Source of the DNA: Antedon mediterranea
Lineage: Eukaryota; Animalia; Echinodermata
NCBI RefSeq assembly: GCF_964355755.1
Contig: NC_092670.1
Coordinates: forward strand, 41,205,388 to 41,269,387
DNA: 64,000 nt
Direction of reading: 5' to 3'
The notes beneath the pieces were generated by a model that saw only the letters and a program-made list of their open reading frames with translations, searched no databases and had not been told where the DNA came from. The translations under genes and the position numbers were made by a program. This document shows positions 4,060 through 57,625 of this stretch, in pieces (position 1 is the stretch's first letter; each line of letters opens with the position of its first letter).

Positions 4060-4836
4060 TTTGAACCAGTGCTAAACTTGACTTTGATTTTGTAAATTAG
4101 AGTGAACCAGGTGTAATAAGACGTGATTTCCGTTTCTTTTATTACCTCTTTATTGTTTGTGATTATTATATCAAACCAGTTACTTACAAAAAAAAACCAT
4201 ATTTGTCATAAAACTAAAACAAATATAAATAAATATAAATTCAAATATATTCTAAATAAATCTTGCACAAAATGTTTAATATTTGGTATTTTCAGGGAAG
4301 GAAACTGTTGGGCGACATGTTTATGAAAATGAAATGATTATGCTATAAAAATGCTTGTTAAAATCAGGTAACCTGGATTATTTAAATCGGGTAACCTGGA
4401 TTATTTAACAAATTGTACATGTTGTATTATTACTACTAATTGATTTCCACTAGCTTTTTATTTGCAAAAATTATATTATAAAGTTTAGTATCAGATTATA
4501 AGCACATGCTAAACCAAAGACAAGCTTGTACTCAACCACCTTGTATGTAACATTTATACTTGCAATCATTATTGTTATATGGTTATAAGTCATTTTTGAT
4601 ATTTAAGCCCTTAGTCAGGCTTCTCATATAAGTTGGTTTTTCTATAAAAGGGGCAAATATTGTCAAGAGCAAGTCTACTGTAATTAAGAAAGAGGGGTTT
4701 TCGTTCTAATCCACTGGCTACAGGCTTGCTATCAAAACAATAAAATAATATTCTTCTGCCAAACATTTGGACACCTTCTTCTTTTAATTCCTTCTGAGTT
4801 TGCATTTCTTATTTTTCTTATATTACAGTTAAGTAT

Positions 4837-5277
4837 GTACACATTCCGTTTAGTAGAGCACTAAATGAACTTAATGTTACGCATAATACATGCGACTATT
4901 TTGTTTTACGTCTATTTCAACAGTGTTGTTCATTTTCTTTTAATGTACGTACACATTCCGTTTAGTAGAGCACTAAATGAACCTAATGTTACGCATAATA
5001 CATGCAACTATTTTGTTTTACGTCTATTTCAACAGTGTTGTTCATTTTCTTTTAATGTACGTACACATTCCGTTTAGTAGAGCACTAAATGAACCTAATG
5101 TTACGCATAATACATGCGACTATTTTGTTTTACGTCTATTTCAACAGTGTTATTCATTTTCTTTTAATGTACGTACACATTCCGTTTAGTAGAGCACTAA
5201 ATGAACCTAATGTTACGCATAATACATGCGACTATTTTGTTTTACATCTATTTCAACAGTGTTGTTCATTTTCTTTA
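4837..5277 (-). repeat. 112-bp x~4 repeat containing the Argonaute C-terminal codons, stop and 3' UTR
   Basis: Each unit reads ...KQNSRMYYA* (or a one-base variant) on the minus strand; stops at about 5213, 5101, 4989 and 4877. Confidence 0.93.
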
Positions 5278-8200
5278 GTTCTTCACTTGTTATTTTAGGC
5301 TGGTCACTGCCTCCGCTGTTTGTTGTGCTTCCAGAGTCGCTAAACAAAATAAAATAAATGTAGTCACACAATTGTTTCCATTAATGTACACATTGTGTAT
5401 TATTTTTATTCAACTTTACTTCTTGAATGAACCAAGTAATGACATGACTAGCAGTGCAAGTACATACCTGAACCTGAGATCACTGTATAAAATATCTCTA
5501 GCTCTGAAAGCAGCGTGATGTGCGTAATAGGCTGGACTTGGAATGGACGTACTCCGTGTACAGCGGGCATATGTATAACACATTTGATTGGTAAATTCTT
5601 CGAGCTGATTTTGTGTGAAATCATTATCATCCCACAACACGTAATAATGAGCTGGACGACTTGTTCCCTGTCATTCAGAGAGAAATGTTGTATTTTTTAC
5701 TTGTCAGTGAAAATAAGTCGACCAATGAAGAAATTTGTCTATTAATAACTACCAAATATACAGGCAGTAATCATTGTCCAATTGGATCATAATGATTATA
5801 ATCATAATTATCAATCAATAACTTCATTATCATTTACCTGTATTCCAGCATGGCTGCAAAGGAAAAAGTCCCAATTGACAGGGTGTGTAATATCCCTATC
5901 GACAATGGTTCCTGCCGGTACATTGCGACCACGTCCATTCTGTAGAATTTATATTTAAGTTTTTATTTCAATTGGTGGCCTTTTTGTGTAGAATTGTGTA
6001 ATTTACAAAATAGCTTGAAATTAAAGTGTGTTTACCTCATCTCTCCTGTCTACACAAAACAGGCGAGTGTGATGGCGTTTCTGCACGGTCAAAAATGTGA
6101 TTCCTGGTTTGTATTCTGAATGCAATGATGAACAAGCCCTGCGAATCGCCATTAGCTCACTGTCCAAAACCTTGTTTGAAAAAAAAATATAAGATCAAAA
6201 GAAAACAAAGTTTGGAAAATTAACATAAATTGGTCACCTGAGAATTGACCCAATACCTACTTGCTGAAACTGCCCTTCACTAACACCATCTCTGTACATG
6301 ATTATTTTCTTTGGTTGAACTCCTGTGCACTTTTTAAAATTAATGAGTAATTCTGTCACCATTTTGTCTAAATCTTCAATAATTTCTTGTCTATGTGCTT
6401 GAACTTTGACCTTAGCATCATACTTGAATGTATGTTTGTCCTTACTACCAACCACCTATAAATAATACACCAAGTGTTAGGGTTAGGGCATCAAGTGTTT
6501 TATTTTCACTGAATATACAAATAAAAACTTTAAACAATTTTAGATAACATTATTTGACCAATACAGTAGTCTGTTTTTGTTGCAAATTTAATCAAAACGA
6601 ACAATTCTTACGGCAGCTATTGACGGTCTGTGAAAATCTCCAGGAGACGGGTGTGTGACGTCAGCACCAAGGACTAAGGCTGGTTCTCTCATAACAGAAG
6701 ACCTTAAAGTATTTAATTCAATATTAAGCTCTGTCTACACTATCAAACTTTATGTGACAACAAAATGTGATGTGCCCATATATAGACATGATGACATACC
6801 ACAATATTTGGGCATATCGTTACCATATTTGCTTTTAACTATTATTACAGATTGACTGTATCTGGCACAAATCAAATGAAAACTCACAAAAATGAGCGAC
6901 AATCTATAATCGATTGAATTTTATAGTATTTGGTAAATCTGTGGTAAAAATGTTGGGTTAAAAAAAATTCATGAGGCAAAACTCTCCCTTAGCAAAAATG
7001 GTCCACAGGCCTGTCAAGAGTGTCAGCCCAGAAAACACACAATTGTAATTTGATTATATTAACTGCCCAGCAAATACAACCCAAGGGTACTATTAGGTCA
7101 TTTACAACAAGGTCACCTGGACAGCTCATGAAAATTCTACATGCATGGTTTTCAGCAAATTCTGTAGTGAAGTGTCTGTCACACTCCAGCTGGCCTCTCA
7201 TGTGTGTCAAGATAAATAATCAGAACTCGTAAATTGTTTAAAACAGACCAAGATTTATTACCCGGAGTTTTTCAAAAACCCGGGTGAAATGGACTGATTC
7301 TGCTAAGTGAGAGAAATGCCTAATGTGTAATTTTGGACGCCTGTCTAATAATGGAACTTTATAAATGACACTCTGAATAGTAGTATTGTACTCAAATGTA
7401 TGGATTTATCAAAGAAAAGTAATACATTACATTTGATTGATGACATTATTAATGCCTCCAAGTTTAGCATTGATTTTTAAACAGATGTTCTCCATTGTGC
7501 GAGGGCTTGCTTTCTTGGCATTTTTCAACTGTATATTTTGTGTTGCTATACCAACTTGAGCATCACCAGCATTTTTTATGTCACCTAGAAAAATATAATA
7601 AACAATCGCCTTTAATTAATCAATTGCAATGTAGTTTTTACAGCCAATAGTAATTTTGATACCATGTTTTGTACTACTAATATACGAATTAAAGTGAAAA
7701 CTTATTGAGAAAAACAAAGCTTACAAACAAAATAGAAAGTTAAAATTATTAAAATTGTAGGTGTTTGTACCTAACAACCCAACCCAATTTCCACAACCGT
7801 ACTGCAGGGCTATCTACATACTGAACATGACAACCAGAAATAACAACTTACCATAAATATCGTTACCTTTACCAGGTAACACAATAAATATAAGCTGAAG
7901 ACCTTGATGTTCTTGACAGTAGAACTGAAACATTTTTACAAAATCCACATTATGTGGACTTTCATACTGAACAAAACTGGCGCTTGCCATTGGCATTCCT
8001 ATCTTAGCTGATGTACCTGTCAACACATCATGCATGTTACTGCAAAAATACAATAAATAACACAATTAATATCTATATTAGTAAATTATACATACAAACA
8101 TACAGGGGTAAAATATATCTCAAATAAGCAACTTTATGTCTATTGTTATGACTGTATATACAGCTTTGCTGATTTTTAAACCATATATCTTTTTATCTAT

Positions 8201-11200: not shown

Positions 11201-14200
11201 TCTTCCCATTTATAAAGTCAATGTTCTATGAAAATTCATCAAAACAGTGAAAAATTAGATATGTTTGCACTTTACGTTTGCCGATTTTCGCACTGACTTA
11301 GGGAAAGCCTTCAAAATCAATGAAGTGTAACGTATACATTCCTGCTGAGCGAGGAGAGCGAGACGACGATACACGTGCTCTACCTGCCCATGCCTGGCAT
11401 CGTCACGTGATAAGCAGATACAGTATACAATACCAAACTGGTCGGGTCGAGTCTCCCCCTTCTATAATTACAACATGAACGATGTACAGTATTTGATTGA
11501 AGGTCGACTCGACCTACCGGAATGGTATAGATAATATAGTTCGAATGAGAGAGTTGGAATATTTGTAAACATAAGTATTGCTAATTTTAAGAACTGTAGC
11601 CTAGTAAAAGGCCTGGTAGTATCAATTCGCATAGGGTCTACTACACTAGCTAGCTCAATTTTTAACTGGGCCGGATCGGCTAGGTCTCCTTCCTACTACC
11701 TGGTCTACTTGCTTGATGCAGTAGTATCCGCTTTTTTGGAGAGTAAACTAGGCCTATTTTAGGCCTACTTAGACGATCGGGACACCATACAACATGCGGA
11801 CGGCGATATTTACAGCCGATTTTGTAGAATGTTTTAGGTTTAGATTGTTTAGGAGTTTGGTTGATAGGATGGGTTTGGAATCCACTGAGTTTTGTTATTG
11901 ATGGGCCAATCGTTTAGTAGTTAGTAGGCTAGCTAGGCCCATTGTATTATTGTACTTAAGTACACCTACCCACTAGAAGTAAGCTGGAATTGTTAATATT
12001 AATATGTCTGTACATAATAGCTCTAGAACCGTTATATAAACACAATGCAGGTTATCTTTACCTCATTGATGGATAGTAACGCATAATGACATCCATCGCC
12101 TGCAGGGCAACATACGGCGTAAAGTTCAACTTTCCACTCAGATACTGGTGCAGATCATGCAGATCGATTGTTGCCACTTTCTTTAATGTTACTTTGGCTT
12201 TTAATGTATTGCTGCCCTCATACTTTTTCTCCACATTTAAATCAACCTAAATAATTCATTAAAATAAAAAAAGTAGTGTTGTTTATCATGGTGCATTAAA
12301 AATGTAAAGCTTAAGTTGTTTGTGGTTGGGTAAAATTTAAGCTGGCACAAAACTACAGGGTCCCATATTTTTCTTATAGTTGTGACAGAGATTGCCTTCT
12401 ATCAAATTAAACTATCCATAACAGGTTCCTGTAGTGATTATATCATTGATTTTGAGATTCTTCAAAATTGATCATGACAAAATAAAGTTTTTATAATATT
12501 TTACTCGTCCTTACACGATTTAAGTAGTCTTGGACAATCAGACGACAAAAGGCACAGAAACCAGCAAGTGAATTAATACTAATATAATAAGTTTCATTGT
12601 TTATCAACTCAAAATAGACTAGAAAATGTTCAACAAATATTCTAAACTGAAATTAACTTATAAGTTCACCAATGAACAACAGCACTACGGTGTTAATAAC
12701 AAACAAAGAATTAACAGGAAAGAAAAGACTTACTTGTGCTCCAGTAAACCTGAGTTCTGCTGGACTATAGACACATTTACGACCATCAAAAACACACTTT
12801 CCTCCAGCAAAAATGTTTCTATTGGTATTTTGTATCTCTTCAAAGATATCTCTATGTAATTGAAAAAGCCATCATTTCAATCTTAAAAGATCAAATTAAA
12901 GAAACCGTCTATGGCCTGTAATGGTTAAACCAGAGAGGTATAAAACTCCATGGTTTAACAGTAAGACCTACAAGTGTCATATATCAACTAACCTAAGTTT
13001 TTTCTTAGGTAGTTTTTCTGGTTGAGTGCTCATGTCATATTGGAAAATGATGACATCCGTTGGAAACTTGACTCTAAAATGATTGCTGTACAGCTGTATG
13101 GGTCGTCCACTAGTGCCATAGCCACGCCTCTTCACTAGTTGCAAAACTAAACAAATACATTAATTGACAATTTTTTAATAACAAAATCTTTAAACTTTGC
13201 CATCTTGGCTAATAAAATTGTCACACTATTATTAGTGTTAACATCTTTCTATAAATAAAATTAACAAAAGATAGAAAAAAAGATATGAAGCAAAAATTTG
13301 GAGAACAATTTTGGCTAGGATGCATTTATTATTTGTTTGGTTCATTGGCCTTAACAAACCAAATTTGATGTGAATAACCAAGAAAAGTATGTACTACCTT
13401 GATCAGTCCTAGCAGGAGAGATCACCTTCTGACCACCACTGGTAACTGGTTTAGGTGTAGTAGGACCGGTCAAGCTAACTGAAGTCACTTTTTGACCACC
13501 ACTGGTTACTGGTTTAGGTGTAGTAGGACCGGTCAAGCTAACTGAAGCCGTAACTGGTTTAGGTGATGTACCACTTAAGCTAACTGAGGCTAATTTCTGC
13601 TCCACTGTCTGATGACCCCAGGCCACTGGTAGAGGCCCACTGATTGAGGCTTCTTTGGGTCTTTCCACCTGCTCCTTAGGTCTTGCACCACTTGTATGTG
13701 CCAACCTGGTAGTTGATTCCTGAGTAATACCAGCGGTAGAAGACAGTTGGGGTTCTGGTAGAGAGGCACCACTCTTTGGTTGTTGAGAATCTTCCTTTCT
13801 TTCAGATGCCTCAACATTTTGTGGTTCAAGTTTTTGCTTGGATTTACCAACTGTTTGTTCTGCAGAACTTTGCCTTCCTCCTGAAAAATATAATAAATAA
13901 ATCAAATATAAAAAGATATCTGCCACTGCAATAAAATCATATTGCAAAACAATTTATACTTCAATTGAGGAATTCGAAATTGCACACACAATCAAATAAT
14001 TGAATTCCACAATAACATTTTAACAACCCACACTTCACTCATGGCTTGCTAGCCAATAATGGTAGGTATCATTCAACATGTTTCCACGTACAGGTAGTAG
14101 CTAGGTACACTACCAATGGAACCATGGAGATAACTAACTAATCTAGCTAGGCCTCGTCCTTCTAAGCCTACAATAGGCCTGTAACTTAACTGTATATACC

Positions 14201-16095: not shown

Positions 16096-19000
16096 TTATA
16101 GGCTGCTTTTAGCCTGGCCAACACTTGATGCAGATTTCTTTCCAAGTGCTTTACATATAAAGTCTGCTGAACTTATCAATTTTCCAAGATCAACGCCCTG
16201 TAAATAAATCATAAATGTCTTTGGTTTAAAGAGCTTATAGTACTTGGCACCATCAAGTCAATAATGATTTGATTTCTAAAAGTATACAGTATTTTACTTA
16301 AGTCACAAATATGAAAATAGTGTATTGAAATAGAATCTTACTGTTTGAATCCCCAAACCATCTAACATATATACAACATCTTCTGTAGCAACATTACCAG
16401 AAGCACCTTTAGCATATGGGCAGCCACCAAGGCCAGCAATTGATGAGTCTACAACACTTATTCCCAGCTAGAAGTATAACAGACATTTTATTAATTAATC
16501 TATTGGTATCTACTAGTAATACGTTAATACCCCCCCCCCCCCCCGTCCCACAAGGACGTAGATCATAATAGCTATTAAGGTTGCAGTAATGTTTATTTTA
16601 CTGATACTGGCCTAGATACGTACACTCTCAATGGATGGAGAACAAACAGCAATCAACATGCTTTTATTGAAGTTTAAAAATGATGATGTAATCATGGTAT
16701 TGTTGACTGCTGCTGGTTAATTTTCCGCTGCAGTCTGTCAATTTACATAAGGCTCTTCCAACCCTGGACTTCTATAACGTAAATGGTTATTAGGTATTAC
16801 TGTATGATGAAATAGGATCTTTTAATTTAGTGGCATAAAAAACATTTAGTATGTAATTAAGGGTGTTGCTCAGGCAACTGGGGCAACACCCTTGCATCCG
16901 CCCCTGGCATACATAGGAATTGAAGGAACAAGAAACAAGGGTATGTAAAATGTCCTACTGTAATCAGTAAATAAATCACCTGTAAAGCAGCAAAGATATT
17001 GACTAAAGCTTGACCATAAGTGTTATGAAAATGAACAGCAAGTTGTTCAATTGGTACATCATTTATGACATCTTGTAGCATCTGTTGCACAGCTAGAGGA
17101 GTTCCAACTCCAATCGTGTCACCAAGAGAGATCTCATAGCAACCCATTTCACGCATTCTCTTTGCTACCTAAAAATACAGTTACATTTATTGTTTCTTTT
17201 CAGGTTGTCTTTTATTATTTCTTTTCACTATGCTATATGCAAGACAAGTGCATACACATTTTACATAAAAAATAAAATGTAAACCGCTATTTTGTTGTTG
17301 AATAGACCATAATCAGTTTGGGAGTGTTGGTGTACCTCATTATCAGAAATGTGCTTATTCCCACAATTTTGCCCTAAACATGCACCAGTGCTTTGAATAA
17401 TTTATTACGGGTTCAATGGAAGATTGGCTGACGATCACATACAAAAATTCAAAGTATTTCTTTTTTTAAATGCAAATCAATACTTGGAAACAAGTTTACC
17501 CTAGTTACTGCACTTGGTTCTATTTTGCCTTCGTATGGACAGCCTACTACGCAAGATACATAACCTCACAAGTTTACCCTAGTTACTGCACTTGGTTCTA
17601 TCTTGCCTATGTATGGACAGCCTACTACGCAAGATACATAACCTCACAAGTTTACCCTAGTTACTGCACTTGGTTCTATCTTGCCTATGTATGGACAGCC
17701 TACTACGCAAGATACATAACCTCACAAATTTACCCTAGTTACTGCACTTGGTTCTATCTTGCCTATGTATGGACAGCCTACTACGCAAGATACATAACCT
17801 CACAAGTTTACCCTAGTTACTGCACTTGGTTCTATCTTGCCTTTGTATGGACAGCCTACTACACAAGATACATAACCTTACAAGTTTACCCTAGTTACTG
17901 CACTTGGTTCTATCTTGCCTATGTATGGACAGCCTACTACGCAAGATACATAACCTCACAAGTTTACCCTAGTTACTGCACTTGGTTCTATCTTGCCTTT
18001 GTATGGACAGCCTACTACACAAGATACATAACCTCACAAGTTTACCCTAGTTACTGCACTTGGTTCTATCTTGCCTTCGTATGGACAGCCTACTACGCAA
18101 GATACATAACCTCACAAGTTTACCCTAGTTACTGCACTTGGTTCTATCTTGCCTTTGTATGGACAGCCTACTACGCAAGATACATAACCTCACAAGTTTA
18201 CCCTAGTTACTGCACTTGGTTCTATCTTGCCTATGTATGGACAGCCTACTACACAAGATACATAACCTCACAAGTTTACCCTAGTTACTGCACTTGGTTC
18301 TATCTTGCCTTCGTATGGACAGCCTACTACGCAAGATACATAACCTCACAAGTTTACCCTAGTTACTGCACTTGGTTCTATCTTGCCTTTGTATGGACAG
18401 CCTACTACACAAGATACATAACCTCACAAGTTTACCCTAGTTACTGCACTTGGTTCTATCTTGCCTTCGTATGGACAGCCTACTACGCAAGATACATAAC
18501 CTCACAAGTTTACCCTAGTTACTGCACTTGGTTCTATCTTGCCTTTGTATGGACAGCCTACTACACAAGATACATAACCTCACAAGTTTACCCTAGTTAC
18601 TGCACTTGGTTCTATCTTGCCTTCGTATGGACAGCCTACTACGCAAGATACATAACCTCACAAGTTTACCCTAGTTACTGCACTTGGTTCTGTCTTGCCT
18701 TCGTATGGACAGCCTACTACACAAGATACATAACCTCACAAGTTTACCCTAGTTACTGCACTTGGTTCTATCTTGCCTATGTATGGACAGCCTACTACAC
18801 AAGATACATAACCTCACAAGTTTACCCTAGTTACTGCACTTGGTTCTATCTTGCCTTCGTATGGACAGCCTACTACGCAAGATACATAACCTCTTACTGG
18901 AATATTTGCTTGTTTTGCAGATTTCATAACTTCCTCAAACCTCATCAAACTTTCGTCAATTGAACAATTTATATTTTTTCTAAAGTCAAAAATAAAAACA

Positions 19001-21661: not shown

Positions 21662-24600
21662 ATGGGGAAAAAACAAAAATTAACTGACAAGGTAATTTTT
21701 TCACGTAGTACATTAGTGCCAATTAATAAATTATTATTTATGTCTAGCTAGGCTAGTTAGCTTCTCTCTCTATTTAGGCTAGGTTAGGCCTAGCCTACTA
21801 GCTAGCTAGCCCGGCTAGCTAGCTAGAATACAGATCACTCCGGCCGCGCTTCACTCCGGCCGCGCTTCACTCCGGCCGCGCTTCACTCCGGCCGCGCTTC
21901 ACTCCGGCCGCGCTTCACTCCGGCCGCGCTTCACTCCGGCCGCGCTTCACTCCGGCCGCGCTTCACTCCGGCCGCGCTTCACTCCGGCCGCGCTTCACTC
22001 CGGCCGCGCTTCACTCCGGCCGCGCTTCACTCCGGCCGCGCTTCACTCCGGCCGCGCTTCACTCCGGCCGCGCTTCACTCCGGCCGCGCTTCACTCCGGC
22101 CGCGCTTCAATCCGGCCGCGCTTCAATCCGGCCGCAGCTATGGAGCGCCCAATGAGTCTTTTACAACTGAGACACGTTTTTTTGTAGAGAATCAAAATAT
22201 ACATTTGTAATCATACAGTATATTTTTTCTCTTTCAGGATCATAACAACATCGCAAGTGTTTTAAATTAGGTCTAATGCTAAAACAAAATAATTTATGTG
22301 TTTTATCCAATGTAATAGGCTAGGCCTAGTATATTAATTGTAATGTGATTAATTAATGTAATTTATTGCAATGTACCCTATATGTCATATTATTTTTATC
22401 ATATATAAATTAAAATATAAAATCATTGTAAATTGGACTGTACAAAAATGATATATTAATTCTTGATACAATTCCAGGTAACATTAATTAGACGGATATT
22501 TGATTATTTGAAATAAATAAATTAATATTGTAAATATTGTTATTAACTATAACAAACATCAATAATAATTGATTATTTGAAATAAATAAATTAATATTTT
22601 ACATTGTTATTAACTATAATTAGTAAGTATGGGTACTGGCAAGATAAAGTGTTATAAAAATAAGGGTTTTAACTAATTTTTAATGTTAATAAATGTAAAG
22701 CTATAAAAATAAATGTACATAGAAAGAAATTAAATATTGTTATTCAAGCATTAATTAGACAGGTATTTGATTATTATTTTATTATTGAATTTAATTAAGT
22801 TAAGTTTAGTTTGAAAGAAAAAGCAGTTCCAACTTCTTTGAATGTTATTCTTAATGAAAAAAAGTAAAATTGTTGCTAATAAATATTCAACTAGTTCCAT
22901 TTAAATTCACCAAGAATTTGTTATAACACTGAACAGTATAGAAAACGTAGATATGGGCGCTCCATACTAACCGGCCCCTTTGCACAGGAAGTCGAATTGA
23001 ATAGCGGCCGGAGTGCATAACATCGCGCTAAACTGATACGGCGGCCGGAGTGAAGCGCGGCCGGAGTGATCAGCTACCGCTAGCTAGGCCTACTAGCCTA
23101 GCTGTAGTTACGCCGATTCAGGGATGATTCGGCCCCAAGACGACATATTCTGTCTGAAAATAAAGTTTGGGGAAAAAAGCTTATTTTATGCTTAATGCAT
23201 ATCAAAGTCGATAAATGTAAGTGTGCCGAATCGTCTCGGGGCCGAATCGAGTCTGGGTTCCAGACGGAGTTTTGTCTTAATATTAGTAAAAAGATAAATA
23301 TTTTGGCACATATGGCGTTTCATACGTATACTACTTGATTTTGGATACTCCGTCTGGGGAAACACGCACAAGTCACGTGGTTTAACACCAAGAATTCTTG
23401 GTGCATACGATTATCCGGTTGACTAGTTTCAGCTGCATGCGATTGGATACTCACTCGTACACCGTTTTAATATTCATATTTCAGAATTTCAAAGACTCAA
23501 CAACTAAGATGATGCGCATGCGCTATGTTACGTTTAGACAATGTGTACATTTATGAAAGTTATTATTTTATATGCCTAGTAGTCTGCTAAACATTTGATG
23601 GGATTTTTCCCAAGAACATGCTCGTCTTGATGTGATAGGCTATAGCTTCTCGGCAATTCAAACATTGAATGGATCATTTATTACGCGGAGATAATTTTGA
23701 TTTAATTCCCACCCAGACCCGGTCCTGTTTTGTGTGGTGGTGGTGTAGCCCTGTTGTGTGCCGGTGGTATGTAGGCCTCGACCTTTATTGGCGTTTTATT
23801 TGGCAGGTCATACGTGCGAGTTGAGTAGGACCTACGAAAGAGGCCTAGGCCAAGGACTAAACAATTCATAAACAACAACAAAAAAACAACTTGGCATTAC
23901 GATTTTATATTTCAACAGTCTCGATTGTACATTCAGCACTGTACGTATTCGATCATCAAAATAATTATTGGTTGATTCGAAATCCATATTTACATACCGG
24001 CCGCCCCATATAGCCAAATACGGTATGATAACCTACGTCATTCTTATCGGATGTTTGCGGTCCGCAAATCGATTTCTATACGTGTTTCACAAGTCTGTAT
24101 TTTCAGACAAAAATCGCGGTCGAAATAAAAACAAATAAATAAAAAAAAAGACAATAAATACAGACTTGGGGCAAGTCTAGGCCGAATCGTCCCGCTACCG
24201 TTACGCCTGGCCCTGCTAGCTAGCCTAACTGGTAGCTACTATGATTCGGCCCAGCGAGAGGCTTTCGGCCCACTTAGGAGGTCGGCCTTTAATATAAATG
24301 TGATTCTTAATTTCTTATTGATTTTTTACAATTTAGGTAGCTGACTTCCTACCTGATTCATTTCCGTCAATGGAAGATGAACTCGATACTCGTAAAATGG
24401 TTAAAATTCAAAACAAAAAGAAAAAGTCAGGCGGCTTTCAATCAATGGGTGAGTCTATTTAAAAAGTTTACAAAAAAATGTTATTAATTAAATGATTCTT
24501 GAGATTGTGATTTTAATTAATAAAATGTTGTATCATTTATAGGTTTAAATCATGCAGTTTTTAAAGGTATAATACGTAAGGGATACAAAATTCCTACACC

Positions 24601-27600
24601 CATTCAACGCAAGGTAAAAGGCTATTGCATTTTTTAAAAAAGTTTTTAATGAAATTTAACATATCCAATCCAATCTAATTTGTCTGCGATCATTTACAGT
24701 TTGTTAAATTATTTTAAATTGTGAAATATGTCTACCTGTTTTCTAGAGTATCCCAGAAATAATGGAAGGCAAAGATGTGGTTGCCATGGCAAGAACAGGT
24801 AGTGGAAAGACTGCTGCGTTTCTTATTCCAATGTTGGAGAAGCTGCAACAAAGGTCAGGGCAATCTGGTGCAAGAACCTTAATTCTGTCACCTACAAGAG
24901 AACTGGCTCTACAGACACTTAAGTTTGCCAAAGAGGTAAGTAGAATGAGTAGAACCTTAATTCTGTCACCTACAAGAGAACTGGCTCTACAGACACTTAA
25001 GTTTGCCAAAGAGGTAAGTAGAATGAGTAGAACCTTAATTCTGTCACCTACAAGAGAACTGGCTCTACAGACACTTAAGTTTGCCAAAGAGGTAAGTAGA
25101 ATGAGTAGAACCTTAATTCTGTCACCTACAAGAGAACTGGCTCTACAGACACTTAAGTTTGCCAAAGAGGTAAGTAGAATGAGTAGAACCTTAATTCTGT
25201 CACCTACAAGAGAACTGGCTCTACAGACACTTAAGTTTGCCAAAGAGGTAAGTAGAATGAGTTAAGAACAAAATCTTTATAAATAAAAACTTACAGATAT
25301 ACTGAAGTAAAAATATAATAGTGATAATCTAATAGCTTTTTCTGTAACTTTATATTATCAAGAGTTCAAACAATAAATAAAAGTATTACTCTAATTGTTC
25401 CATTTTTTTTTTATTAACATTTTATATTTGTTGTATTTTCAGTTAGGTCGTTTCACAGATCTGCGTGCAGAGGTAATTCTAGGGGGCGACAGCATGGAAG
25501 AACAATTTGCTGCCTTACATGAGAATCCTGATATAATTATTGCAACACCTGGTCGTTTATTACATATCATTATGGAGATGGATCTAAAATTGAAAGCAGT
25601 TCAGTATGTTGTCTTCGATGAGGCTGACAGGTGAATATTTAGATTTTATTGTAGTTCAGTGTGTTGTCTTTGATTAGGCTGACAGGTGAATATTTAGATT
25701 TTATTGTAGTTCAGTATGTTGTCTTTGATGAGGCTGACAGGTGAATATTTAGATTTTATTGTAGTTTAGTATGTTGTCTTTGATTAGGCTGACAGGTGAA
25801 TATTTAGATTTTATTGTAGTTCAGTATGTTGTCTTTGATGAGGCTGACAGGTGAATATTTAGATTTTATTGTAGTTCAGTATGTTGTCTTTGATTAGGCT
25901 GACAGGTGAATATTTAGATTTTATTGTAGTTCAGTATGTTGTCTTCGATGAGGCTGACAGGTGAATATTTAGATTTTATTGTAGTTCAGTATGTTGTCTT
26001 TGATGAGGCTGACAGGTGAATATTTAGATTTTATTGTAGTTCAGTATGTTGTCTTAGATGAGGCTGACAGGTGAATATTTAGATTTTATTGTAGTTCAGT
26101 ATGTTGTCTTTGATTAGGCTGACAGGTGAATATTTAGGTTTTATTGTAGTTCAGTATGTTGTCTTTGATGAGGCTGACATGTGAATATTTAGATTTTATT
26201 GTAGTTCAGTATGTTGTCTTAGATGAGGCTGACAGGTGAATATTTAGATTTTATTGTAGTTCAGTATGTTGTCTTTGATGAGGCTGAAAGGTGAATATTT
26301 AGATTTTATTGTAGTTCAGTATGTTGTCTTTGATGAGGCTGACAGGTGAATATTTAGATTTTATTGTAGTTCCGTATGTTGTCTTTGATTAGGCTGACAG
26401 GTGAATATTTAGATTTTATTGTAGTTCAGTATGTTGTCTTCGATGAGGCTGACAGGTGAATATTTAGATTTTATTGTAGTTCAGTATGTTGTCTTAGATG
26501 AGGCTGACAGGTGAATATTTAGATTTTATTGTAGTTCAGTATGTTGTCTTTGATTAGGCTGACAGGTGAATATTTAGATTTTATTGTAGTTCAGTATGTT
26601 GTCTTTGATGAGGCTGACAGGTGAATATTTAGATTTTATTGTAGTTCAGTATGTTGTCTTTGATGAGGCTGACAGGTGAATATTTAGATTTTATTGTAGT
26701 TCAGTATGTTGTCTTTGATTAGGCTGACAGGTGAATATTTAGATTTTATTGTAGTTCAGTATGTTGTCTTTGATTAGGCTGACAGGTGAATATTTAGATT
26801 TTATTGTAGTTCAGTATTTGATTTGATTTATTTTGATACCATACAAAGTTAACAAATACAGATATACAGGTAAATATTCATGATTGTATTCAGTACATTG
26901 TCTTTGGTGAGAAAAATATTCATTTTGCTGTTGAATTATTGTAGTGTGTACCGTGTTGTGGAGAAGCATTTCCTAGGGAACTCAATTGACAACATACAAG
27001 TCCATGCGCTGTCTTTTTGAAGTTCTGGTTTGTTAAAGCATAAAGAAATGGGTTTATTGCTGCATTGGTCCAAACCAAAACATTAGCACTTCTTATAAAA
27101 ACCATTGATGTTTGGTTGTCCTTATTTGTAAAAACAGCAATACCGTAAGGAATCCAGCAGAAACATGTAATGCTAACAATAGCAATAACAGCTTTCATGA
27201 CTCTAAATTCTGGATTGCGTGGCGCTTGTGATATGGTTCTAGGTAATGTTCTACCATTCCGCATTGTTAGTGAATGTGTATGTACACGTCGTCTGCTCTC
27301 ATGATAAGCTTTATATATCAAGTAATTTGTAATAGTAACAAGACAAAGTGAATAACCCATTGCATATCCTATTATGATTGCTTCAAACGTCCATGATTCC
27401 AAATCTCCATAAACTATTGCGCAATGTCGTAATGCAACGTTAAATCCCACCTCACCAAAACCACACATTGGCGCTAACACCGGCCCAAGAGTCAACAGAA
27501 AGTTTATACAAATCGTAAACACAATATATTTGTATTGTGTAAAGCGGATGTAAAATCTATGAGATTTAGTTATCAGTATATAACGATTAATACTAATAGT

Positions 27601-30600
27601 TGTCAGGGTAGTTAAAGACATGCCTAGAGTCCAAAGTGTAACATATCCCAGAAACTTACACAAATTACAATCAAGGTTCCAACTGTTGTTGTACACACTA
27701 TAAATAAAGAATGGCATAAGAAAGCCTGTAGTGATCAGATCAAAGACTGCTAGATTGGCAACCCAAAAGTAAGTTACAGTCCGTAATGCTGGCGTGAATA
27801 TAATGGCTGATATCACAAATATGTTACCCACACTTCCTACAATACATAAAGTAATGAGGTAGATAACTTCAATGACTGTTCCAAAAGGCCCGCTGGATTC
27901 TGTCAGAATGTCTGTCACATTCACTATTATGGGATAGCAGTAATTTGCCATGATTTGGAAATATTCAATTCAATCTTTTGATTTTTACTAAACAATCCAC
28001 TGAGACCTAAACAGAGATTAAAACAAAAAAAGTAGTGATAATAATAAAGAAATTTAGGAATTCTATGACTATAGAACATGTCAATTACTTGATAAATGAA
28101 ATGAGAATGTAGCTATTAGTATTATGGATCATGAAATGAGAATGTAGCTATTAGTATTATGGATCATGAAATGAGAATGTAGCTATTAGTATTATGGATC
28201 ATAAAATGAGAATGTAGCTATTATGGATCATGAAATGAGAATGTAGCTATTATGGATCATGAAATGAGAATGTAGCTATTAGTATTATGGATCATGAAAT
28301 GAGAATGTAGCTATTAGTATTATGGATCATGAAATGAGAATGTAGCTATTAGTATTATGGATCATGAAATGAGAATGTAGCTATTAGTATTATGGATCAT
28401 GAAATGAGAATGTAGCTATTAGTATTATGGATCATGAAATGAGAATGTAGCTATTAGTATTATGGATCATGAAATGAGAATGTAGCTATTAGTATTATGG
28501 ATCATGAAAATGTTTGGATAACAACAGAAAATGAATGAAAACAGTGGTATATTCATCATGATGCCAACATCTGGTGAGCTATCGATATAGAGTGAATATA
28601 AATATTGAGCTATGCTTCCTGGTCCCCATGGTATACCTTAAATTAATTAAATAAAACATTTACACAAATAAAATCATACTTACCGCCGACATCATACTTA
28701 CCGCCGACACTGGGAGTTGGGAACAACTAACAAGACCATTTCAACTTGACCAGATTCAGATTTCTAATAAGATTTTTAATTCTTGCTTGGAGTATGAAAT
28801 TTAATTCTTTTAAGGCTCTGTTTACCTTAATCTTGAGTTGTATGACGAAACATGTTTGATTAAATGCCATATCATAGATATAATTATCAAAGTAGATTGC
28901 ACTAATAACTTATATCAAGTTGAAACACTTAATTATATCATGGAGGGATGATTATATTGTGAAGCTAATGGGCTTGTTTACCGTAACTGTCCATTAGTCT
29001 TGTGTAAAGTAAAGTGAATATTAATGTGTTTACCCTTAATATATTTACACCAGTATCTGCATATAGATAGACGAGGTATCAAATACCATACACAAGATCA
29101 TATCACATTTAGAATATTCCATTGGCATCTGTACGATATTATTCTGTTTTTATCTGATTTGGCAGTTAATACTTAGTTATACACTGTTTACCTCAGTATC
29201 AAATAAAAAATTTGTTTTTTTTTGTGTTTTGTGTGCATGCTACGTGTGTTGCTTTAACAACATTTTAAAGTTAAGTCGTGATGTAGTCATTGTAGGGCCA
29301 TTCAAAATGACTTGTTGACTTTTAGACCCTTGGTACCTCCCTGCTTGATGTTTAATCAAAATATTAATAAATGAATTTGTCTACTTTGACAGATTGTAAA
29401 TTACGGTCGCTCATTTCTCATTTGTTTATATTAGGTTATTTGAGCTTGGATTTGCTGAGCAATTAAGAGAGATAATTCAGAGATTACCTGACAACAGACA
29501 AACAGTCTTATTTTCTGCAACACTTCCAAAGTCATTGGTAGAATTTGCTCAGGCAGGTCTTAATGATCCTCTACTTATACGTCTTGATGTCGAAACTAAA
29601 ATCAGTGAAAATCTCAAGGTATATCAGATTTGATTTTTTTAATTATGGCGAAACAAATAAAATGTTGATAAACAAGCTGTTCAACAGAGTTAGATGTTTG
29701 GCAGAATATCGGTAAAATTCAAAATGCATACAACATAAATACCATAAATATTTGTATAATAATTGCTGATATAATAATTAGACATCAATTTGAGTCAAAA
29801 CCATTTAACGTTATTTCACCCATTGATTTTATAGACATCATTTCTTTGTATGAGGGCAGCAGATAAATTACCAGTGTTGATGTACCTGTTGAGAGAAGTT
29901 GTGAAAGCCAATGAACTTGCTGTTGTTTTTATGGCAACTAAACATCATGTAGAATTTGTTAAAGAGGTGAGATTGATGTTTGCATTCATTTCAAATTTGT
30001 AGTGTTTTACATTCACATGTTTGTGTACATGTAGATGATATCAAATTGAACATTTTTAGCAGTCTTTATTTGGCCAAGTCCAGTAATAAAAAAGGAACTG
30101 TTTTCCACAAACAGTATTTTAAAGAAATTGAGTCTTGAAATACAAAATAAAAAATGCTCTTCCAATTCTACAGTAATTAAAAACTAAACCTAAAATATAT
30201 TTTCTATCAAGATTCTAACGCAAGCTGGTGTAAGCTGTACTTACATCTTCAGCTCTCTTGACCAGACTGCACGTAAAATTAACGTGGCAAAATTTACAAA
30301 TAGAAAAACAAATGTGATGTTAGTGACAGATGTAGCTGCTCGTGGTATTGACATCCCAATGTTGGATTATGTCATAAATTTTAACTTCCCAGCAAAACCA
30401 AAGTTATTCATACACAGAGTTGGTAAGTTGTAACTTCTTCATTTGTATTGTAGTAGTGTGGCAAAAGCAGCTTGTAGTTTCTCATAAAGTTTTTTTAAAA
30501 TTGAGCTTTTTTAATTGTTTTTCAGGTCGTGTAGTTTTAAAAATTGAGTTAATTTGTTTTTCAGGTCGTGTAGTTTTAAAAATTGAGTTAATTTGTTTTT

Positions 30601-33600
30601 CAGGTCGTGTAGCAAGAGCTGGTCGTAGTGGTACAGCTTTCTCAATGGTAGCACCTGATGAATTGGCACATTTAGCTGACCTTCATCTGTTCCTTGGCCG
30701 ACCTTTGACATTCTGCCAAAGTTTACACACTAAAGGTGATGATCATATTAGTATCCACTGAATTCAATTTTAATGATTAAATTGAGTATGTAATGTCATA
30801 ATGTAAATATTATCAAGTAAATTTTGGTTTAAAATGATAACAAAATCACAAAAATAGGAGAACCCATTTGAAATAATATTTTGCAAAAGAATTAACACAA
30901 GTTCAAATTTACTACTAAGATGATGATGGCTTGTTTGGACGTGTGCCTCAAAGTATAGTGGAGGATGAAGCAGATCACATACAGCAGTTAGAAAACAGAT
31001 CAATGGAGATTGAAGGATTGAAAAAAGTTTGTCGCAATGCTTACTCACAATATCTTAAATCACGACCGGCGCCCTCTACGGCTAGTATTAAACGTATGAA
31101 AGAGTTTGATGGCGTTAATGTCATGTTGCATCCAATGTTTGGTAAGTTAATAATTTATAGAAGAATAATAACTATTAGATCAAAGTGAAACATAAAAACA
31201 AAATGTAAGTAATCTTAATATCCACAGAAAAGCATTTTTGAATTCATTATAATGAAATTTATTTTTAAATAGATGTAAATGATAAAGATGAAACTACAAG
31301 ATACCAACTTGTGGATGGAATCAAGAATTATAAAGCAAAAACGGTAAAATAAATAACTTGTTACACCCTTTCTCCACCAACTATATAATAAACTGTATAC
31401 AAAGTAAGGGTTAATTGTCAATACTTCACAGACAATATTTGAAACCAACACTACAGCAAAGAGTTCAGCATTTGATGTTATGAAAACAAAGAGAAGAATT
31501 CATCAAAACGCAGTTAGTAAAAGAAGGAATAGATTGGAAGAAAAGGAATCAATAGAAAGTGGAAAAAGTAGAAAAAGAAAAGCAAATGATGATGATGGTG
31601 TAAAAATGGCAATGGTAATTTTATTGATGTATTACTTATTGATTATAGAATGTTTTAATATGTGTATGTTTATATATGTTTATTGATCTATTACTTATTG
31701 ATTATAGAATGTTTTAATATGTGTATGTTTATATATGTTTATTGATCTATTACTTATTGATTATAGAATGTTTTAATATGTGTATGTTTATATATGTTTA
31801 TTGATCTATTACTTATTGATTATAGAATGTTTTAATATGTGTATGTTTATATATGTTTATTGATCTATTACTTATTGATTATAGAATGTTTTAATATGTG
31901 TATGTTTATATATGTTTCATATATGTATGCTTTAATGCTTCTTATAATCATATAAACCTAATAAGGAGTTGTTCTTATTTTTAAGGATACATTCTCAGTA
32001 GTAATAGACGGCAAAAGAGGACGTAAATCAGCCAAATTTGATGAGGGTAGTGATTACTATATTTCCTATACACCATCAGACAAACAAACAGAGCAAGGGT
32101 ACATATGCTTCTATTTTATCAAAGGGTATATTTATCATATTCATGTTACTTTTATCTGCATGTTATTTTTGTGTGTGTGTTTTATTTGACAGGCTAAGTG
32201 TTGGTTCATCGTTTAGTCATCAAGCTAAGTCTGCTGTACTTGACTTAACTCAGGATGACAGTCGGATAATGAATAAAAATCAGAAGCTTATTCGCTGGTA
32301 AGACAATTAATCTGTTATGTAGTGATATGCCCAAATATGGTAGTGATATGACATCATCATGTCCATATATGGGCACATCACATTTTTATACAGTTTCTTC
32401 AGTAATCAATTAACGTTTAAAATATAATAAACATTTGTTTAAATATTTCACTTTCTTTTTTTAGGGACAGAAAAAAGAAGAAATACATAAACGAAGCTGG
32501 AAAAGATACACTAAAGAAAATAAAAACAGAAAGTGGGATGTACATCTCGGCATCTTACAAAACAAACAGGTATATTCAACCAATGTTTATCAAATCAAGA
32601 TCACTAATTAAAAGCAGGTTGTTAATTAAATAATATATTTTAACTTTATTTGTTGTTTAGGTACAAAGATTGGCAAGAAAAGAGCAAGGTTGGTATGAGG
32701 GCAGCAGATGAAAGTGATGATGAAGATACAGCAAAAAGAAATGGTAAAGCCCTGCTTCTATATTGATTGCACACTGATTACTGTAGTACCTATTATGTAG
32801 AGCATTTAAAGAAATACTGTGTTTATATTGATTGCACACTGATTACTGTAGTACCTATTATGTAGAGCATTTAAAGAAATACTGTGTTTATATTGATTGC
32901 ACACTGATTACTGTAGTACCTATTATGTAGAGCATTTAAAGAAATACTGTGTTTATATTGATTGCACACTGATTACTGTAGTACCTATTATGTAGAGCAT
33001 TTAAAGAAATACTGTGTTTATATTGATTGCACACTGATTACTGTAGTACCTATTATGTAGAGCATTTAAAGAAATACTGTGTTTATATTTATTGCACACT
33101 GATTACTGTAGTACCTATTATGTAGAGCATTTAAAGAAATACTGTGTTTATATTGATTGCACACTGATTACTGTAGTACCTAGTATGTAGAGCATTTAAA
33201 GAAATACTGTGTTTATATTTATTGCACACTGATTACTGTAGTACCTATTATGTAGAGCATTTAAAGAAATACTGTGTTTTTTTAAAGGCAAACTTGGATT
33301 AAAATCAACGTTAGGAAATCGTTACCGTGGTCATCATAAACAACAAAAAGGAAAAGCACGAAATGAATTAATACCAAATGAGAAAATCTTAAAGACACGT
33401 AAGAAAAAAGAAAAGAATCAAGAAAGAAGTAAACCTAGGAAAGACCGGGGAAGAGATGGCAGGGGTGGAAGAGATGGCAGGGGTGGAAGAGATGGCAGGG
33501 GTGGAAGTGCTGGTAAAGGAGGCAATGTCTTTGGCAGAAAGGGAGTCAGCAATTTTGGTGGAGGCCGAGGAGGTGGAAGAGGCGGCCGAGTTGGTGGTGG

Positions 33601-33709
33601 AAGAGGTCGAGGTGGTGGAGGTCGAGGTGGTGGAGGCCGAGGTGGTGGAGGCCGAGGTGGTGGAAGCCGAGGTGGTGGAAGAGGTCGAGGTGGTAAATCC
33701 AAAAGATGA
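21662..33709 (+). CDS. DDX54: DEAD-box RNA helicase DDX54/Dbp10, multi-exon, with a C-terminal RGG tail
   Basis: Motifs [63 protein letters not shown] and a DBP10CT-like KIKTESG; RGG-rich about 33445-33700; TGA at 33707. Confidence 0.95.
21826..23078. mobile_element. Non-autonomous DNA transposon with subterminal inverted 16-bp arrays and an 8-bp TSD
   Basis: TSD gctagcta at 21818-21825 and 23079-23086; (cactccggccgcgctt) x~18 on the left and inverted copies at about 23023-23071. Confidence 0.85.
23115..24199. mobile_element. Non-autonomous DNA transposon with subterminal IRs and an 8-bp TSD
   Basis: TSD gttacgcc at 23107-23114 and 24200-24207; IR gggatgattcggcc / ggccgaatcgtccc. Confidence 0.85.
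24873..25262 (+). repeat. 78-bp x5 perfect in-frame repeat of DDX54 motif Ia plus 5' splice site
   Basis: The unit encodes [21 protein letters not shown] followed by |gtaagtagaatgagt; first donor at 24936. Confidence 0.97.
25598..26817 (+). repeat. 55-bp x22 repeat of the DDX54 DEAD motif plus 5' splice site
   Basis: Unit agttcagtatgttgtctt(c/t/a)gat(g/t)aggctgacag|gtgaatatttagattttattgt. Confidence 0.97.
26920..27951 (-). CDS. Rhodopsin-family (class A) GPCR with an intronless CDS, nested antisense in a DDX54 intron
   Basis: 343 aa with 7 hydrophobic segments. Motifs GN (TM1), NLAVFD (TM2), INRY (TM3, melatonin-receptor-like NRY), CWIP (TM6), NPFLY (TM7) and helix 8 NFKK. Confidence 0.93.
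   Translation of the reverse strand: MANYCYPIIVNVTDILTESSGPFGTVIEVIYLITLCIVGSVGNIFVISAIIFTPALRTVTYFWVANLAVFDLITTGFLMPFFIYSVYNNSWNLDCNLCKFLGYVTLWTLGMSLTTLTTISINRYILITKSHRFYIRFTQYKYIVFTICINFLLTLGPVLAPMCGFGEVGFNVALRHCAIVYGDLESWTFEAIIIGYAMGYSLCLVTITNYLIYKAYHESRRRVHTHSLTMRNGRTLPRTISQAPRNPEFRVMKAVIAIVSITCFCWIPYGIAVFTNKDNQTSMVFIRSANVLVWTNAAINPFLYALTNQNFKKTAHGLVCCQLSSLGNASPQHGTHYNNSTAK
28096..28508. repeat. 35-bp x~12 minisatellite in the probable 5' UTR intron of the GPCR
   Basis: Unit atgaaatgagaatgtagctattagtattatggatc; two copies carry a 7-bp deletion. Confidence 0.93.
30497..30612 (+). repeat. 39-bp x3 repeat of a DDX54 3' splice site
   Basis: tgtttttcag|gtcgtgtag with AGs ending at 30525, 30564 and 30603. 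Confidence 0.92.
31622..31917. repeat. 59-bp x5 intronic repeat
   Basis: tattgatctattacttattgattatagaatg... units starting a few bases after a donor. Confidence 0.9.
32759..33279. repeat. 65-bp x8 repeat filling almost the whole last DDX54 intron
   Basis: Unit tatattgattgcacactgattactgtagtacctattatgtagagcatttaaagaaatactgtgtt. Confidence 0.93.
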
Positions 33710-34349
33710 TTAAAAAAACAAAAATCAACAATTTGTTCATGGGTATAAAGAGCAATCAATAAAGTAAAAAGCTAATATATTTTGCATTTTGTTTTTATTT
33801 TACATCAATACAACAATACAGATATGATTATCAATAAGGGCAACAAAAGGCAAGCTTCTTTCACAAACTGGAGTAACATCGATAAGGACATTATTACATA
33901 CACTCTCAATGTACCAAAGTAACATCTATTATGTACTACATATAAATATATGGCTGATATTATTTATCAATATTTTCAATAGTGCATAGATAATGCTTTT
34001 GTGTTTGCAGGACTGGTGCCTTCTCCCATTGATGGGGTGTGTGTGCTAGTCACAGGGTGACTTTTGGTCTAAATTATAATCCCTGAGGAAATACAACTGG
34101 TAACTTTAAGTACCTAATATTAATTATAAATAAATAACATAGTAAGCAAGCACAATTTTTATCTCTTGAAATTGCACATTTTTCATCATTGTAAGCAGAA
34201 TAGTATCAACTTATACATTACGGTGATATCACATAGACGTACAGTGATTTCAGTTCAGTAAATAACAATACTTGGTTCACAGTATTAGCAACATGTAACT
34301 GAACACTGGGTTTTTATCTCTCTTGGTAATCATCAGAAGGAGCTTACTA

Positions 34350-41108: not shown

Positions 41109-41890
41109 AATAATAATAATAATAATAAATAACATTTTTAAAGCGCAAGAGACAAAGGTTTCAAAGCGCTGTGTTTTCCAAGATCTGTGCAAGTAGTAGC
41201 GTGTGATTATGCTTCTCTGAAGAGATGAGTTTTGAGTTTAGTTTTAAATGTGATTACAGATTTTGATGAGCGTATTTCGAGGGGTAGAGTGTTCCAGAGT
41301 TTTGGGGCTGCGACAGCGAAAGCACGATCACCGTAAAACCGAGTTCTGGAACGGGGTCCAGGTTTTAGAAGAAGTCTGCTGGATGAACGAAGTGTAGAGT
41401 TTGTTGACGGAGTAATGATGTCACATATGTAGGCTGGAGCACATCCGTTGATGGCCTTATATGTCAGCAACAGGATTTTAAAACGAATGCGCAGATCTAC
41501 AGGCAACCAGTGTAAGTCACGTAAAACGGGAGAAATATGTTCATGTCGTTTAGTGCCAGTGATAAGTCTTGCGGCGGAATTTTGGATTCGTTGAAGAGGA
41601 GACAGATAAGAAGTTGGTAGGCCGTACAGAAGCGAGTTATTACAGTCCAGACGAGATGAAACAAAAGCATGAACAAGACGTTCAGTTGATGTTTTGTCAA
41701 GGTACTTACGAATCTGGCCGATCTGGTAAATTCCAAAGGAAGCACCACGGCAAACATTACGAATGTGTTCTTTTAAACCGAGGCTGTTGTCTAGTTGGAC
41801 GCCAAGATTTCTGGCTGAGCTGGAGGTAGAGACACTAGTATCTCCAATGAACAATGACACAGCAAAAGTGGGATTTAGCTGAGAACTACT
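41109..41890 (-). mobile_element. 5'-truncated L2-clade LINE (RT C-terminal part, 3' stem-loop, (TTA)n tail)
   Basis: ARNLGV.LD, LVHAFVSSRLDCNNSLL, LHWLPV, AFAVAAPKLWN and FKTKLKTHLF; agcgctttga..gcgct stem-loop followed by (att)n. Confidence 0.92.
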
Positions 41891-42229
41891 ACTGTACATA
41901 CAATGCACCAGACATTCAAAACCTACTCATTTCATATTGGAAAATAAACTTCTGTAAAAAATGCTGCTAACATATTTAAAATTGTTTTTGAATAAATTCA
42001 CTACAGCCAGTAGATTATATAGTATTAATAATGTGTATAGTATGTGTATTATTTTCTGGTTCCTTTTGATAAAAATGTGTACGACCTGAAGAAAATTTCT
42101 ATAAAACAATTGATGTTTAAATATTTAAATAGGTTTTATTCTGGTTTTATGAAATAAACACATTTATTTTGAAAACCTACAAAATACTGTACTTACAAAA
42201 ATTCATAAAATATTCATATTTATTGTTAA

Positions 42230-47578: not shown

Positions 47579-49348
47579 GGATGCTAGTCAAGTCGCCCCA
47601 TCGCAAAGTCGCCCCATACAAAGTCGCCCCTTACACAGTCGCCCCATCGCAAAGTCGCCCCAAAACAAAGTCGCCCCGACACAGTCGCCCCATCGCAAAG
47701 TCGCCCCATCGCAAAGTCGCCCCAACGCAACGTCGCCCCATCGCAAAGTCGCCCCATCACAAAGTCGCCCTATCGCAAAGTCGCCCCAAAACGTTAAAAA
47801 ATAGTTTACAAGTGCGTAAAATGTCGCAATGATACACAAAATAACACGGAACGTGTAGGCATAAAAAGGGGAAGCCCCGCCATGTAGTTTCAGGTCACAC
47901 GATCGGCACGCACCACCATCATCAGAGAGGAAGCCCCCGACTAATCACTCCGCGGTCGCACTAACGTGCTAGCTTACCAGAGGGAAACCCCCGTAATTAC
48001 TCCGCCGTTGTCGCACTACAACGCACCATCTGAAGATGGGGAAACCCCGCCGGAGTTTTACGATGATATCAGTCGCGTTCGAAATCGGTCGCGTTTAAAT
48101 TTGGTCGCGATAAAATGATGTTATACGATCTAGATTATATACATAGTATTACGTAATGAACATTGATTGTAAGCCTGGAAAGGCAATCCCATCATTATAT
48201 CCATTATAAAATTGCATCATATCACCACTATATGTCGTAAATGATGACGTGCGTGTGTGTATTCGTCGTACGTCCGTGTACGTATTATTCCGTGCCTCTT
48301 CACGGTCTTGTTTAATTTAAAATTAAATAAATACCCGATATGAGGATATTTATTAGGCATGATAATTAGAATGTTCTAGGCCTAACCAAAAGGGTTGAAA
48401 AGAATTTCTTCAGTAAAATGATCATTGTGCTGTTGAATAAAAGGCGACTCGCCATCTGAAACATTCTCTGAAACCAATCGGAACTGCGCCGTCTTTCTGC
48501 TGACCGTCGGGGATTGCTCTTTTTAAAAAACACGCACACGATACTGTACGATGGTTTTTCCATGGTCAAAATGTAGCGTTTTAATTTTACTAAAATACCT
48601 GCATGTAAAACAATCATATCGGCGATGAAATCCTTTTTTTTTAATTTCTTTATTTTGAAAAGTCATTATAAAATTAAGACACATAACTTGTCAATAAATG
48701 CAAAATGATCAATAAGTAGCCTATAACACTCATTGTCTTACAACACTGTTATTGTTTTAACTACTGTAAATCTATAGGAAGGCCTAGGCTACTACACATT
48801 TATACATTTATTATAATTATTATCCTAAAAAATTAGCTGGTATCCACGCGTAGGTTGAAGAAAGATTCGTAATTGTGGCTCTGGTAACTAATTTTAAAAT
48901 CATATTAAATTAACATTTTCGAAACTATAAATCAGGGATAGGCCTAATCTTTTTAGAACTTTCAAACAAGGGACTATTTTTTTAATGATTTTTAATAAAA
49001 AGCACATCACTCCATTAAAACCTTAAAAATTAAAACACAAATTATGTATATAGGATAAACATTATACTGTATACGACATTTAGCGCGACCAAAGTAACAA
49101 CGCAATCGATATCAAACGCAACCAATATGATTAAAACCGTGGGCGACTTTGCGATGGGGCGACTTTGCGTTGGGGCGACTTTGCGATGGGGCGAATTTCC
49201 GATGGGGCGACTTTGTAATGGGGCGACTTTGCGATGGGGCGACTGTGCCGGGGCGACTTTGTTTTGGGGCGACTTTGCGATGGGGCGACTTTGTATTGGG
49301 CGACTTTGTATGGGGCGACTTTGCGATGGGGCGACTTGACTGGATCCC
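47579..49348. mobile_element. Non-autonomous DNA transposon with ~200-bp inverted subterminal (aaagtcgccccatcgc)n arrays and an 8-bp TSD
   Basis: TSD ctctttcc at 47571-47578 and 49349-49356; arrays at about 47586-47790 and 49141-49341. Confidence 0.92.

Positions 49349-57580: not shown

Positions 57581-57625
<45 letters not shown>

Follow-up and report, generated by a model that had tools for sequence, protein, structure and literature searches.

The analysed window (a stretch of 64,000 nucleotides of DNA from Antedon mediterranea) carries a gene for the DEAD-box helicase DDX54. Our model of this gene has 16 exons, with AG/GT at all 15 introns, and one open frame of 840 residues which is 50–59% identical to DDX54 proteins of other animals. 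For one of the exons, the best solved relatives are DDX54 and DBP10. The first model exon comes after an AG, and the gene may start further up than modelled. An intron of 3804 nt, which follows the exon encoding the DEAD box, hosts a tandem array with a 55-bp unit. Behind this array, a single-exon GPCR gene is nested on the opposite strand. The features are listed in Table 1. Among the neighbouring genes, those for Argonaute (1016 of 1017 residues) and a PHTF2-like protein (759 of 765 residues) are identical to Antedon mediterranea proteins at nearly every position. Positions 24000-34000 gave no matches in Rfam.

Table 1. Position and strand of the features at and around the DDX54 intron that hosts the 55-bp array
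Position	Strand	Feature	Remark
24873..25262	+	78 bp x 5 identical copies; end of the previous DDX54 exon plus donor	Single in the relative
25443..25630	+	DDX54 4th exon of 16, ends in helicase motif II (VVFDEADR)	Both splice junctions seen in the RNA contigs (runs X5 and X9)
25600..25654	+	Unit 1: real exon end (31 nt) plus intron start (24 nt)	Authentic donor at 25631
25655..26809	+	21 intronic copies of the 55-bp unit	8 with GAT TAG
26808..26827	+	Stump of an older duplication (putative)	First 10 nt equal the unit start; 17/20 columns alike
26815..26864	.	Dispersed-repeat piece of ~50 nt, interrupting the old duplication	Many unrelated contigs match just there
26827..26832	-	AATAAA hexamer on the GPCR strand, candidate signal	88 nt past the GPCR stop, between stop and array
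26866..26911	+	Decayed junction copy, covering donor, spacer, and the beginning of the following unit	Common to the relative
26920..27969	-	Single-exon frame of a rhodopsin-family GPCR (7tm_1, E 4e-33)	First ATG near 27951; nested antisense in DDX54 intron 4
29435..29618	+	Next DDX54 exon	First letters directly after the DEAD exon in RNA contigs

Anatomy of the 55-bp array

Tandem Repeats Finder reports a period of 55, 22.2 copies, and 96% matches for the region 25598-26817. When cut at 25600, the array resolves into 22 units of 55 bp (25600-26809), each combining the final 31 nt of the exon that encodes the DEAD box with the initial 24 nt of its intron. Being arranged head-to-tail across an exon-intron boundary, it is a member of the boundary-spanning minisatellites. 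The first-pass annotation had described 22 copies of the DEAD box, each flanked by an acceptor-like AG and a donor. There are indeed 22 units, but the first is the real exon end, which leaves 21 extra copies. The flanking signals are as described: an AG precedes each unit and a GTGAAT donor is found in each (22/22 in both cases), with 31 nt from AG to GT. In unit 1, the AG is exonic and falls within Ala-Val codons.

The 22 units fall into 10 distinct types, with an average of 1.5 differences per pair. The conversion of GAT GAG to GAT TAG, which had been noticed in several copies, was counted in 8 of 22 units (2, 4, 6, 10, 15, 18, 21, and 22). The 11-residue reading of the exon end is exact in the exon and in only 8 intronic copies; the other copies carry a stop or another change. 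Three recurrent variants are scattered across the units, a pattern of concerted turnover inside the array with a diverged edge. Position 25616 is a C in the exon and in units 7 and 16, while most units of the array and the exon of the relative have a T. This shared C suggests an exchange between exon and array. Of nine distinct variants, eight lie within the exon-like 31 nt and one within the 24 nt that hold the splice signals (P 0.046, post hoc).

The possibility that the array is an assembly artefact was considered and rejected, the array being supported in contigs of two runs: X1, which is probably the source sample, and X5, which is another sample (organism A) from another study. The X1 contigs break at the array, and the array unitigs have a depth of 1100-5654 compared to 351 on the flank (3 to 16 times). 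X5 contains an unspliced 85-nt tandem piece (depth 13.4) which is identical to 26755-26817, TAG included. The array is thus present in a second individual. This piece may represent pre-mRNA, DNA, or read-through from the GPCR gene.

Splicing of DDX54 and predicted effects of using a copy

No run is recorded as RNA. X5 (organism A) and X9 (organism B) were treated as RNA, since a GT..AG intron (25248-25442) is missing from their contigs, which join 25247 to 25443. In the contigs of both runs, 25630 continues straight into the letters of the exon at 29435, which is the normal joining and represents the major form. Thus, the unit at the edge of the array holds the authentic splice site, and the mRNA is spliced normally. 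A spliced-in copy is expected to produce a backward joint from 25630 to 25600, and none is listed in the X5 and X9 contigs (major form only). Contigs do not retain rare forms, and substrates of NMD are scarce; a low use of the copies would therefore escape.

When each of the 21 copies is spliced in singly, a stop is reached within 6-7 codons, at residue 193 or 194. The two- and three-copy inclusions that were tried also end at residue 193-194 because the stop lies inside the first copy. Reading past the real DDX54 donor leads to a TGA at once. As predicted from these translations, the use of a micro-exon or of a downstream donor would truncate the protein near residue 190 of ~840. Given the early stop on use of any copy, no extra DEAD boxes can be made, and the proposal that the array is a set of micro-exons supplying them is not supported: 31 nt break the reading frame, and 21 of 21 copies give a stop. 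The TAG codons of the variants are read in the frame of the DEAD box and not in that of a spliced-in copy, and therefore say nothing about micro-exon function. Units with a TAG would matter only if a crossover moved one of them into the position of the exon.

Judged by their letters, the copies carry splice-like signals, with a donor identical to the real one and an AG that ranks as weak to moderate. Under a 60-site matrix, for which the sites of AGO and PHTF were shifted to the closest AG/GT and may be misplaced by a few bases, the unit AG reaches 6.1 bits, above 35% of the 60 real acceptors and ~97% of 920 intronic decoy AGs. Under a 28-site matrix, it reaches 1.8 bits and is below the first quartile.

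Comparison with a close relative

Organism B was used as a close relative. Its DNA runs X8 and X6 (two samples, one study) are ~97% identical to the DNA of the window in the GPCR frame. In an X8 contig (3977 nt, depth 198.6), position 25654 corresponds to position 2048 and 25600 thus to 2102; 26755 also maps to 2102 (two X8 records were equated as one contig by equal length, depth, and strand). Because units 1 and 22 map to the same letters, the relative has one copy. An X6 contig of 6251 nt spans the same place with flat depth. No array pieces were found at the locus in the contigs of X8 or X6, where depth is flat. The copy number of the 55-bp unit is therefore 22 here and one in the relative, and potential micro-exon copies are not conserved there. 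The same X8 contig extends 1459 nt upstream of 25185, and the 78-bp array in the preceding exon is thus also single in the relative.

The edge behind the array

A diverged copy of the unit had been reported at 26866-26911. Its position is confirmed, and it agrees with the unit junction in 40 of 51 columns. The score of 46 is reached by none of 2000 dinucleotide shuffles (maximum 35) and by none of 435 other tiles of the window (maximum 27). The end homology of the array coincides with the first 10 nt of the stump (Table 1), and the stump is also found in the relative, where it has 5 nt fewer. Between stump and relic lies the dispersed-repeat piece, which resembles the 3′ tail of a retroelement read on the minus strand; a second copy was not found within the window. 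Stump and relic are kept in the relative with few changes. From these alignments, we conclude that what appears to be an older duplication of the same exon-intron boundary sits directly behind the young array.

The first-pass annotation had considered the array to be old. This applies to the diverged copy, but the relative has a single unit and yet keeps the relic. Hence, the relic is old and the homogeneous array likely young, where the direction of change is read from a single relative (one study, no outgroup).

Other arrays in the window

According to Tandem Repeats Finder, the window is rich in young arrays. Splice sites are spanned by 5 of 13 arrays, compared to 2.9-4.0 expected by random placement (P 0.14-0.36). 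This test covers arrays with a period of at least 30 inside five modelled coding spans, using collapsed genes; it omits 2 of 15 listed arrays with such a period, which are outside the modelled coding spans, and all periods below 30. An enrichment of arrays at splice sites was not found for these five gene models of the window; with a decayed TDP2 case added as a sixth spanning array, P is 0.12-0.17. The median intron has 173 nt, so that a random duplication of 30-90 bp often hits a boundary, and no special mechanism is needed.

The five spanning arrays cover donors in TDP2 (31 x 29), HMGCL (78 x 18), and DDX54 (78 x 5 and 55 x 22), as well as a DDX54 acceptor (39 x 2.6). The names TDP2 and HMGCL were assigned by reading the translated models, with Pfam support that ranges from weak to good. 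In the TDP2-like gene (2660-3558, + strand), the unit comprises an exon end and a GTAAGT donor and is of the same kind as the 55-bp unit. An 89-bp repeat at 1746-1960 (+) has decayed copies of a TDP2 exon end which have lost the donor, and represents an older case. The array in the gene for HMG-CoA lyase (17490-18893, - strand) likewise combines exon end and donor.

The 78-bp unit in the preceding DDX54 exon keeps the frame open (26 residues with helicase motif Ia), and the X5 and X9 contigs are unbroken there. Unlike in the 55-bp array, use of a downstream donor in this array would, by translation, add in-frame repeats. DDX54 has three further arrays on the + strand (30511-30612, 31620-31917, and 32759-33279). 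One of them spans the acceptor mentioned above, and the other two begin 5 nt behind a donor or stop 8 nt short of an acceptor, filling most of their introns.

Additional repeats were observed elsewhere in the window. A 114 bp x 2 repeat at 60954-61182 (+) has a donor-like AAG/GTAATC inside and is probably another exon-end duplication. In-frame coding repeats occur in the Argonaute N-terminal exon (63 bp x 2; 13422-13547, - strand) and in a long low-complexity frame (126 bp x 3.8; 59046-59530, + strand). Two inverted 16-bp tandem arrays about 1.35 kb apart (47590-47788 and 49141-49337) resemble the termini of a non-autonomous DNA transposon, such as a foldback element, and a similar 16-bp array is at 21835-22135. 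Frames at 53376-58001 and 41207-41926 resemble pieces of non-LTR retroelement endonuclease and reverse transcriptase. Within 55808-57622, a retroelement-like frame with a 42-nt A run has seemingly been inserted into another.

Origin of the array and alternative readings

We consider it likely (with a probability of about 0.85) that the array is a boundary-spanning minisatellite which has 22 units here and one in the relative, and which is probably neutral, given that the first donor is the one used in splicing. The stump 55 bp behind the exon may derive from an old and short duplication of this boundary. The homology of 9-10 nt between stump and exon likely seeded slippage or unequal crossover in this lineage. 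Repeat turnover would then have multiplied the unit and distributed a few variants, namely the TAG in eight units and the C in the exon and two units. The "acceptor" AG is probably a by-product, the duplication breakpoint falling on an AG that is common to exon and stump. The first donor is likely chosen by 5′-to-3′ priority, similar to human F7, and rare splicing slips would lead to stop-carrying transcripts that are likely degraded. End homology was not found in the three other donor arrays, and the seeding step is therefore not general.

Alternatively, the array could be old and have stayed uniform through concerted evolution with the exon, with its far edge decayed and the inner copies lost from the relative. 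The relic that is common to both organisms and the exon variant that recurs in units 7 and 16 agree with this, as do the edges of amphioxus mirages, which escape homogenization according to the available part of the report (PMC3087553). However, the relative is single-copy at both the 55-bp and the 78-bp array, which would need two separate collapses. Also, divergence is not graded, with a mean of 1.5 differences per 55 among units and then 11 of 51 columns at the relic. An old array is thus rather unlikely.

We regard it as quite improbable that the copies are poison micro-exons, where a low, regulated inclusion triggers NMD and sets the level of DDX54, with copy number as a dial. Each copy has its weak-to-moderate AG and an authentic donor, every inclusion gives an early stop, and variants avoid the 24-nt signal part, although that bias was noticed post hoc. 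On the other hand, the corresponding joint is not listed for the X5 and X9 RNA contigs, the relative is devoid of the array, and only 24 nt separate the copies while none of 60 introns in the window is shorter than 86 nt. In addition, similar arrays in neighbouring genes have no usable AG. Equally improbable is a more elaborate version, in which a young stack of 21 poison micro-exons, specific to this lineage, derived from the end of the catalytic exon of the gene itself and re-seeded by the older stump, would drain a copy-number-dependent share of the DDX54 pre-mRNA into NMD, with crossover of a stop-carrying unit into the exon as a standing source of null alleles.

The location of the array next to the stop of the antisense GPCR was also correctly described, the distance being 103 nt. 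It had led to the proposal that the 3′ UTR of the GPCR crosses the array, and carries many 31-nt antisense pieces which lower DDX54 where the GPCR is expressed. In addition to this proximity, the GPCR appears intact in the relative and under purifying selection, as indicated by the 33 listed differences between the frames (27 silent, 6 replacement, 0 stop), and the unspliced array piece from X5 would fit. Unspliced DDX54 RNA, or DNA summed over copies, would account for that piece equally well, and in the relative, the GPCR occurs without the array. Cleavage usually occurs 10-30 nt behind a poly(A) hexamer. One AATAAA precedes the array (Table 1), others are present on the GPCR strand in the units (26805-26800, 26750-26745, and so on), and cleavage at the first hexamer would precede any exon-like piece. 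GPCR cover in X5 and X9 is confined to patches around 27700-28095 with a depth of 3-8, and most of the frame has none, which favours neither expression nor its absence. We consider an antisense effect very improbable.

Recursive (ratchet) splicing, with the AG/GT found at the donor of every unit acting as a zero-length exon for stepwise removal of the intron, would leave no trace in mature mRNA, making the RNA contigs uninformative, but is hardly credible, since as an acceptor this AG follows 14 purine-rich nt and outscores only 2 of 28 real ones, the AG with a T-rich tract continues with TT rather than GT, and the 3804-nt intron is spliced in the relative without an array.

Relation to known arrays

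As far as the available parts of the reports go, amphioxus has "mirage" minisatellites which span exon-intron boundaries in Adh3, the globins BflGb6 and BflGb9, troponin C, and PGBD5, with normal mRNA splicing, an unstable length, and diverged edges (PMC3087553, PMC3902484). In the respects covered there, the Antedon array is similar: its units span the boundary, the first holds the real site, the copies carry AG/GT signals, the mRNA is normal, the edge copy is more diverged, and there are several cases per genome. It differs in having a crinoid host, in its 22 copies compared to 2-7 given for the globin and PGBD5 cases, and in the older relic of the same boundary behind it. Length polymorphism and somatic instability are known from the amphioxus mirages.

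In human genes, the first monomer spans the donor in the 37-bp VNTR of F7 intron 7 and in arrays of CBS, 6-16, LAMIN B2, and PDGF, as stated in the accessible part of PMC1557585. According to the same text, F7, LAMIN B2, and PDGF rely on the most upstream donor alone, while CBS and 6-16 additionally make use of two pseudo-donors. As in these F7-type arrays, the first Antedon monomer spans the donor and is followed by identical pseudo-donors. Unlike the F7 monomer as presented there, the Antedon unit includes 31 nt of exon instead of 4, and has an AG at the breakpoint; therefore, the Antedon copies look like cassette micro-exons. Compared to F7, donor choice in Antedon is read from RNA contigs. 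To the extent that intronic ratchet points are characterized in the consulted part of PMC8605326, each Antedon unit resembles them in its AG/GT, but differs by the lack of a good acceptor context, the modest length of the intron, and the absence of the array from a close relative.

A literature search for boundary-spanning arrays in crinoids or echinoderms retrieved nothing relevant. The Antedon array is a crinoid example of a known oddity, an ordinary minisatellite of the amphioxus-mirage or human-F7 type. The array would matter more if its copy number changed DDX54 output, and were the copies indeed poison micro-exons, the minisatellite would be a heritable dial on ribosome biogenesis. What it adds is history, with the relative showing the single-copy state and the shared relic showing an earlier duplication of the boundary. 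Such arrays can mislead gene prediction, and they are natural substrates for first-donor priority outside mammals.
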